From Eledone cirrhosa (Eukaryota): a DNA stretch of 64,000 bases. The translations under genes and the position numbers were made by a program. Of the stretch, positions 21,233-21,556 are shown in pieces. Below the pieces are notes generated by a model that was not told the origin of the DNA, did not search any database, and saw only the letters and a list, made by a program, of their open reading frames with translations. The DNA lies in contig OZ024750.1 of the NCBI GenBank assembly GCA_964016885.1, positions 28,272,001 to 28,336,000 of the forward strand, read 5' to 3'. Position 1 is the first letter of the stretch; each line of letters begins with the position of its first letter.

Positions 21233-21556
21233 ATTGTTATACTTTGGGAGGGTCATGTTGCCAATAAGAAACACACGCACCAGTTGCTTTCACTTCAATT
21301 TATTATATATTTATAAACTTATAAATTTACAAATTTACAAACTTATAAATTTCTGGTTGGTTGGTTGGTTCCACAACCAGATAGTTGTTTATATATAGTC
21401 ATAGTCCTTTCGTCACACACTCTGTGACCTCTTCAGTGACTGGGGATTCCTTTCTTTGTTTCTTATTGGCAACATGACCCTCCCAAAGTATAACAATATC
21501 GGTTTCGACACACGATTTCAGATAAAGAATCTTGCTAAACAAATTCAGAAACGAAA
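21233..21556. mobile_element. PLE-like family B inverted element in (TA)n
   Basis: The arms share TTATTGGCAACATGACCCTCCCAAAGTATAACAAT in inverted orientation; long end CAGAAACGAAA(TA)n. Confidence 0.8.
21397..21441 (-). ncRNA. Minimal type I hammerhead ribozyme (family B)
   Basis: AGTCA CTGAAGA G GTCAC agagtgt GTGAC GAAA ggac TA TGACT: 5-bp stem I, 5-bp stem II, minimal stem III. Confidence 0.8.

Follow-up and report, generated by a model that had tools for sequence, protein, structure and literature searches.

Penelope-like elements (PLEs) insert as a unit in which an inverted, 5'-truncated copy adjoins the main copy, together with a 30–40-bp tail that is often present at one end only (PMC3846280, PMC8557442). 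In the parts of these papers drawn on here, the tail is ascribed to endonuclease-mediated resolution (PMC8557442) and the palindromic junctions are read as self-priming (PMC3846280). In vitro work published in 2024 on Poseidon of Anolis carolinensis (PAc), the anole PLE, shows cleavage and extension of each of the two target strands, with reverse transcription starting at two RNA-internal sites, the genomic tail being the stretch between them (PMC11167929). The same report describes no homology between these starts and the cut DNA, predicts a dimeric protein and notes that PLE transcripts carry tandem pLTRs. Naiad PLEs, as presented in PMC8557442, have (TA)n targets and no canonical hammerheads, and are present in cephalopods. 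Hammerheads of animals have a self-complementary loop III and can occur as opposite-strand motif pairs 100–700 bp apart (PMC4209133). Twin priming of L1 gives inverted arms joined by short microhomology, and dual priming has also been proposed for that element (PMC2837659). Our literature search for PLE twin priming and newer mechanistic work, which was made at the level of titles and had paywalled papers and bioRxiv supplements outside its scope, returned none beyond the papers cited here.

Outer ends of head-to-head insertions at (TA)n

An earlier note on this DNA had claimed that several repeat families end at two fixed 3' positions, one short and one long with a tail, and that two-armed insertions pair one end of each kind. 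We took a census of the ends by BLAST of the window (the whole stretch of DNA analysed, 64 kb in length) with family references; all counts given here refer to this one window, which is AT-rich and of which ∼38% is simple repeat after masking. The 15 junction coordinates of the earlier note each correspond, give or take a few bases, to a junction between element and (TA)n and show the motif quoted for them. Families A, B and C have 26 outer ends in the window (13, 6 and 7, respectively), and every one of these lies at one of two positions for its family. Family A has six short ends, every one at reference position 57 of 136, and seven long ends at reference 135–136, including variants at 41583, 51440, 51607 and 54410 that the exact motif used previously had missed. 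Three short and three long ends were found for family B, and three short and four long ends for family C, where the positions are fixed to ∼5 nt rather than to a single base (short ends 5 nt apart, long ends ∼2 nt). The distance between the two positions is ∼80 nt in A, 61 nt in B and 89–94 nt in C.

A (TA)3 run lies within 10 nt of 24 of the 26 ends, compared with 3118 of 57787 background positions (5.4%); the ends lacking it are those at 51440, beside a TACA run, and at 17554. (TA)n adjoins 12 of the 13 A ends. Because both flanks are (TA)n, a target-site duplication is unreadable. Fourteen A, B and C insertions account for these ends, and 12 of them (six A, three B, three C) are two-armed with their 3' ends facing outward. 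Each of the 12 pairs a short with a long end, as had been claimed (binomial P 2.4e-4 under random pairing), and has its tail, of 61–94 nt, on one end only; across all families the tail measures 41–94 nt. The end pattern is real and non-random. From the orientation of the hammerhead motifs described below, the ends of B and C would be RNA 3' ends, and those of A are assumed by analogy to be the same.

The B insertion in the piece displayed above consists of a short-ended arm of ∼225 nt on the minus strand (21235..21463), with a minimal hammerhead motif (core 21436, predicted cut after 21402), and a tailed arm on the plus strand (21457..21556) made up of 39 nt of core and the 61-nt tail; the 7 nt at 21457–21463 are microhomology shared by the two arms. 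A second B insertion at 33536..33819 has a tailed arm (minus, 23 nt core plus tail) and a short-ended arm (plus). The third, at 56085..56654, is a symmetric palindrome with arms of ∼250 nt, the 61-nt tail on the plus arm and one hammerhead motif in each arm; its arms are identical over the 222/222 nt compared.

Family A insertions have a tailed minus arm and a short plus arm at 4904..5098 (∼80-nt tail), 6365..6556 and 41583..41791, and the opposite arrangement, short minus and tailed plus, at 33293..33521. The tailed arm retains just 11 nt of core at 51440..51588, and at 54335..54410 a short minus arm abuts the final 39 nt of the tail (plus), the two having no core in common. The remaining A copy (51607..51753, minus) is one-armed and long-ended. 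In family C, a symmetric palindrome at 61584..62530 has ∼430-nt arms, an 89-nt tail on the plus arm and one hammerhead motif per arm. The insertion at 53386..53712 has a tailed minus arm (72 nt core plus 89-nt tail) and a short-ended plus arm with a hammerhead motif (core 53615), and that at 17520..17842 has the last 46 nt of the tail (minus) followed by 33 nt of family E tail, with a short-ended plus arm that again contains the motif (core 17746). The C long end at 17554 extends into sequence matching the end of the family E tail at 32 of 33 nt (window 17520–17554 and 30811–30843). This run-on may have arisen by template switching from one family to the other or by nested insertion, or may reflect a common downstream start site. 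The last C copy (2504..2600, plus) is tail-only and begins at the internal TA-like site of the short end. Another tail-only copy, of family I, lies at 6261–6346; both are flanked by TA on both sides.

Eight further insertions of the same shape were chosen by eye as asymmetric palindromes and so make no contribution to the pairing statistic. They comprise the adjacent A-related families A' (18800–18945) and A'' (18966–19152), each short plus tailed within 18800..19152; two copies of the A-related family I, short plus tailed at 17292..17447 and tailed plus short at 23808..23970; the C-related family J at 51079..51364, with a hammerhead-like motif in its short minus arm and a 47-nt tail on its plus arm; and palindromes of families E (30640..30841, 91-nt tail), F (22868..23188, 68-nt tail) and G (29858..30110, 41-nt tail). 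The tails of A, A', A'' and I can be aligned with one another. Read by eye, the alignment puts the short end at a homologous position in these diverged families, ∼23–28 nt ahead of a motif that their tails have in common. The first family I copy lies between (GA)n and (AC)n rather than in (TA)n, and shows a 3-nt match to the TC phase at its short end. At the A' short end (18800–18820) there is a 10-nt direct duplication, as though synthesis had restarted at the same site. Insertions sit back to back on common short TA runs at 33293–33819, 51440–51753, 18800–19152, 6261–6556 and 22638–23188, a clustering that would be expected if the TA flanks of existing insertions were targeted again and again.

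Several other repeats occur in the window. The commonest, of ∼190 nt and with at least 20 copies (853–1251, 8944–9371, 10939–11301, 40590–40773, 61198–61378 and ∼15 more), is often in direct tandem and is without the one-tailed head-to-head shape. A tandem array with a ∼85-nt unit of 95–97% identity spans 27250–29590. A tRNA-type SINE family, with a head that looks A/B-box-like by eye, is represented at 12855–13075, 22638–22844, 31170–31410, 52637–52793 and 55569–55804, mostly beside TA-rich runs. The window reads as animal DNA, and the look of its SINEs suggests a cephalopod. Two SINE copies end in ∼20 nt resembling the A and A' short ends (p 0.017 and 0.003 by shuffling, out of 25 comparisons), a weak hint that this family borrows the same machinery; no SINE copy is two-armed. 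An isolated C2H2 zinc-finger match below the Pfam cut-off (12529–12699, E 1e-4) is possibly the end of a LINE remnant.

Relationship to Penelope-like elements

We searched both strands of the window with a descriptor of the minimal type I hammerhead, built on what we take to be the core motif of this ribozyme. The design of the descriptor follows the text of PMC4209133. It returned four strict matches against 0.06 expected and nine relaxed matches against 0.08 ± 0.27, as estimated from 100 block-wise dinucleotide shuffles. All nine fall within B, C or J, on the outward-facing strand (3' end towards the TA run), and are putative minimal type I motifs of the sense strand; in C, loop III is self-complementary (palindromic). 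The descriptor found no motif in the copies of A, A', A'', I, E, F and G in the window. In the A lineage it was applied to the 55–150 nt of core that are present, the upstream parts being absent from the window. In two focused Rfam scans, neither B nor C gave a match to a hammerhead family, and none appeared among the 150 of 334 matches listed for the whole window. A TA run at 61129–61198 forms the centre of a perfect palindrome of 70 nt; close to it, words resembling the hammerhead core were seen by eye on the minus strand, which the descriptor missed.

No long gene was recognisable among the window ORFs tested, Pfam found neither a reverse transcriptase (RT) nor a GIY-YIG domain in 97 of 98 filtered ORFs, and no copy in the window contains an ORF. 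In two of the three B copies an ATG and 26 open codons run through the long end, which is expected by chance with P 0.16. This B frame, of 38–40 residues, matched no PLE protein: one search gave nothing at E<=10, and two marginal internal, multi-stretch matches (E ∼8e-4) from further searches were rejected, as they had no RT or endonuclease domains.

Comparison with the unit formed by EN+ PLEs (Pen2a_Av of Adineta vaga, PMC3846280; scheme in PMC8557442) places these insertions close to it in the features that those sources describe. The head-to-head inverted 5'-truncated copy and the one-sided tail are alike, as is the minimal hammerhead in the repeat (here in B, C and J only), and a pLTR and tail extending over the start of an ORF would be a further likeness if the B frame is genuine (P 0.16). 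The differences are the tails, 41–94 nt here as opposed to 30–40 in the published unit, and the lack of an ORF here. Naiad PLEs (PMC8557442) likewise insert at (TA)n, with a truncated inverted copy and a tail on one side, and lack a canonical hammerhead, which fits A, A', A'' and I; the N-terminal GIY-YIG, CxC linker and C-terminal RT described for Naiads, however, have no coding counterpart in the window. When eight short motifs taken from families A, B and C were compared by exact matching with the supplement of PMC8557442, whose line breaks limit such a search, no relevant match emerged. Non-LTR retrozymes, as described in bioRxiv 10.64898/2026.07.22.740005, are likewise short, non-coding, hammerhead-bearing and pLTR-related, but form head-to-tail tandem arrays, whereas every paired copy here is head to head with a one-sided tail.

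The families are likely heavily 5'-truncated terminal repeats (pLTRs) of several PLE families, and we are confident of a PLE origin. The PLE tail is the known feature behind the short/long end pattern. The families are new and their tails are longer than those published, and the architecture itself has already been described. That the insertions are instead MITE-like or fold-back DNA elements inserting at TA, or assembly artefacts at palindromes, would account for the TA flanks and inverted arms and agrees with the lack of an RT gene in the window and of hammerheads in A, E, F and G. We nevertheless judge this very unlikely. In place of the equal terminal repeats and fixed length of a MITE, we found a tail on one end and lengths of 76–947 nt; ends that are unequal by a fixed 41–94 nt, variable inner ends and one-armed or tail-only copies are unlike terminal inverted repeats, and B, C and J carry hammerhead motifs. 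As for assembly, the A arms differ by substitutions, which an assembly fold-back is not expected to produce, and three public runs contain 60–77% of the sampled words of 33372–35900, although these come from one sample, possibly the assembly source, and are not independent. The matches listed in that run search included no RNA run; three reduced-representation DNA runs share the species label. Among metagenome contigs, an exact motif scan gave zero matches for an A motif and zero for a C motif. In prokaryote genomes, 30 matches of a 16-mer, fewer than the 278 expected by chance under uniform composition and with a longest alignment of 28 nt, were rejected as chance.

Start sites and TA microhomology at the short end

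The earlier note had also proposed two defined priming sites on the RNA, one of them internal at a TA-like microhomology, each used by one strand of the cut target. Two defined start sites are supported by the clustering of ends in the window and by the in vitro data on the anole PLE (PMC11167929). Since two RT starts were demonstrated there in 2024, this part of the proposal is largely published. The assignment of one start site to each strand draws support from the short plus long pairing in 12/12 insertions together with the seven asymmetric insertions among 20, whose short arms contain extra sequence. PAc, in the parts of its description considered here, resembles our families in having two fixed genomic ends that bracket the tail, an AT-rich target and use of both strands. 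Its two strands, however, are reported to use the starts alike, whereas here each insertion has one start of each kind. The idea that just one of the sites is internal fares less well: both starts of the anole PLE are internal to its RNA (PMC11167929). The long end here need not be the transcript end either, as is weakly suggested by the B frame that stays open through it (P 0.16).

All 12 short ends of A, B and C show a perfect TA-phase match of 3–5 nt (3 nt in all six A, 3–4 in B, 3–5 in C), where the null mean is 0.7–1.5 nt. Outside these three families, the match measures 3–4 nt for E, 4 nt for G and 2 nt for F; A' and A'' have none, J has 0–1 nt and the I copy with TA flanks has 1 nt. With a strict score, P is 0.032 for A, B and C combined, 0.047 across all ten families and 0.028 at the level of lineages, but in the seven held-out families the microhomology is not significant (P 0.23). 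A mismatch-tolerant score gave P 0.003–0.008 and was set aside, having been chosen post hoc with observed values read by eye. These values are suggestive of a modest enrichment of TA-like microhomology at the short end, where a match of 2–5 nt is common; the PAc starts, by comparison, are reported to be without homology to the cut DNA (PMC11167929). Tail folding revealed no consistent stable hairpin (z −2.1 to +1.3, with C alone at −2.1 among 12).

Arm asymmetry and models of priming

The two arms of an insertion were compared for all 20 two-armed insertions. Twelve are symmetric palindromes plus a tail and seven are asymmetric, with G in neither class. In all seven, the tailed arm has less core (0–72 nt) than the short arm, and the reverse is demonstrable in 0/20 (sign test P 0.016). 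Two of the seven have no core common to both arms: for A 54335 and C 17554 the zero overlap comes from the BLAST census, and matches in a self-alignment there are spurious internal ones. In such copies the short arm cannot have been copied from the tailed arm, nor one arm be a fold-back copy of the other, so a priming or template event of its own is needed. Inner junctions show microhomology of 2, 3, 7, 2 and 4 nt in five of the six asymmetric junctions tested (J was left out, and the reference for C 17554 is diverged). In B, the arms differ at 0/222 positions within an insertion and at 10/210 between insertions, and in C at 0/169 and 6/168, respectively, so that the arms of one insertion have private variants in common. 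Family A shows no such likeness, its arms differing at 11/206 positions as against 17/308 between copies of the same subfamily (hand-summed). Arm asymmetry, inner microhomologies and common private variants point to twin priming on one RNA.

The model that we consider probable, if by no means secure, is that both cut TA strands prime on one RNA, at the far and near ends of the tail. An autonomous PLE protein, absent from the window, would cut self-complementary (TA)n on both strands; one cut strand would then prime at the far end of the tail and the other at the near end of the same RNA. The tail-primed cDNA would often stall 0–72 nt past the near site, where a second cDNA already occupies the RNA. 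In asymmetric copies the two cDNA ends might then join by 2–7-nt microhomology, and in symmetric palindromes the second cDNA might snap back and copy itself before joining. The few TA-like bases at the near site would likely fine-tune the landing of the second primer without being required. LINE-1 twin priming, as described in PMC2837659, is alike in that the second target strand primes inside the RNA and gives inverted arms with short microhomology. It differs in that its second site varies and its arms do not overlap, whereas our families have a fixed second site, frequently overlapping arms and no poly(A).

Two other routes from a PLE RNA to the same structure have to be weighed against one-RNA twin priming. 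The tail-primed cDNA could fold back and copy itself after a single priming event, the short end being formed by endonuclease resolution or TA-like joining. One-cDNA fold-back equally explains the 12 of 20 symmetric palindromes with matched inner ends and the identical arms of B and C, it follows the published readings of resolution (PMC8557442) and self-priming (PMC3846280), and an AT-preferring nuclease would likewise leave TA-like bases at the short end. Copy-back, however, cannot supply the sequence that seven of 20 short arms hold and their tailed arms lack, including the two cases without overlap, and two RT starts have been seen directly in vitro (PMC11167929); we regard single priming as unlikely. 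Alternatively, the two start sites could be used on two RNAs, through dual priming by a dimer, or on two pLTR copies of a tandem transcript. This would ease the difficulty posed by an overlap between the arms that can extend over the entire core, since templating twice from one RNA segment needs strand displacement or snap-back, and it can draw on the predicted dimer and tandem pLTRs of the anole system (PMC11167929) and on the dual priming proposed for L1 (PMC2837659). It leaves unexplained, however, the strict short plus long pairing, the matched inner ends and the greater truncation of the tailed arm (7 versus 0), and the private variants common to the arms in B and C also stand against it, so that we hold it to be rather improbable. 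For the symmetric class, both fold-back with nuclease resolution and two-RNA priming are possible.

A broader version of one-RNA twin priming, which we put forward tentatively and with more doubt than confidence, is that PLE integration is an obligatory, ordered form of it. The tail would then be the spacer between two strand-specific priming sites. A motif bound by protein, ∼25 nt inside the tail, would determine this arrangement, and pairing of the cut (TA)n end with the TA-like patch would adjust it finely. If this is correct, a single rule would yield symmetric palindromes, truncated-tail inversions and tail-only inserts, with tails of up to ∼90 nt.

With the architecture and the two start sites published, the finding itself is ordinary. 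It has a practical use in annotation, where palindromes of this kind can readily be mistaken for MITEs or microRNA hairpins; in the Rfam scan of the whole window, sub-threshold miRNA matches dominate the 150 of 334 matches listed. Its value lies in cheap in vivo evidence on how the inverted arms form, a question left open by the in vitro work as reported in PMC11167929. Strict pairing, one-way asymmetry and inner microhomology are testable constraints on whether one RNA or two are used and whether priming is guided by pairing, and the long-tailed, TA-targeting families described here offer a convenient contrast to the anole element.
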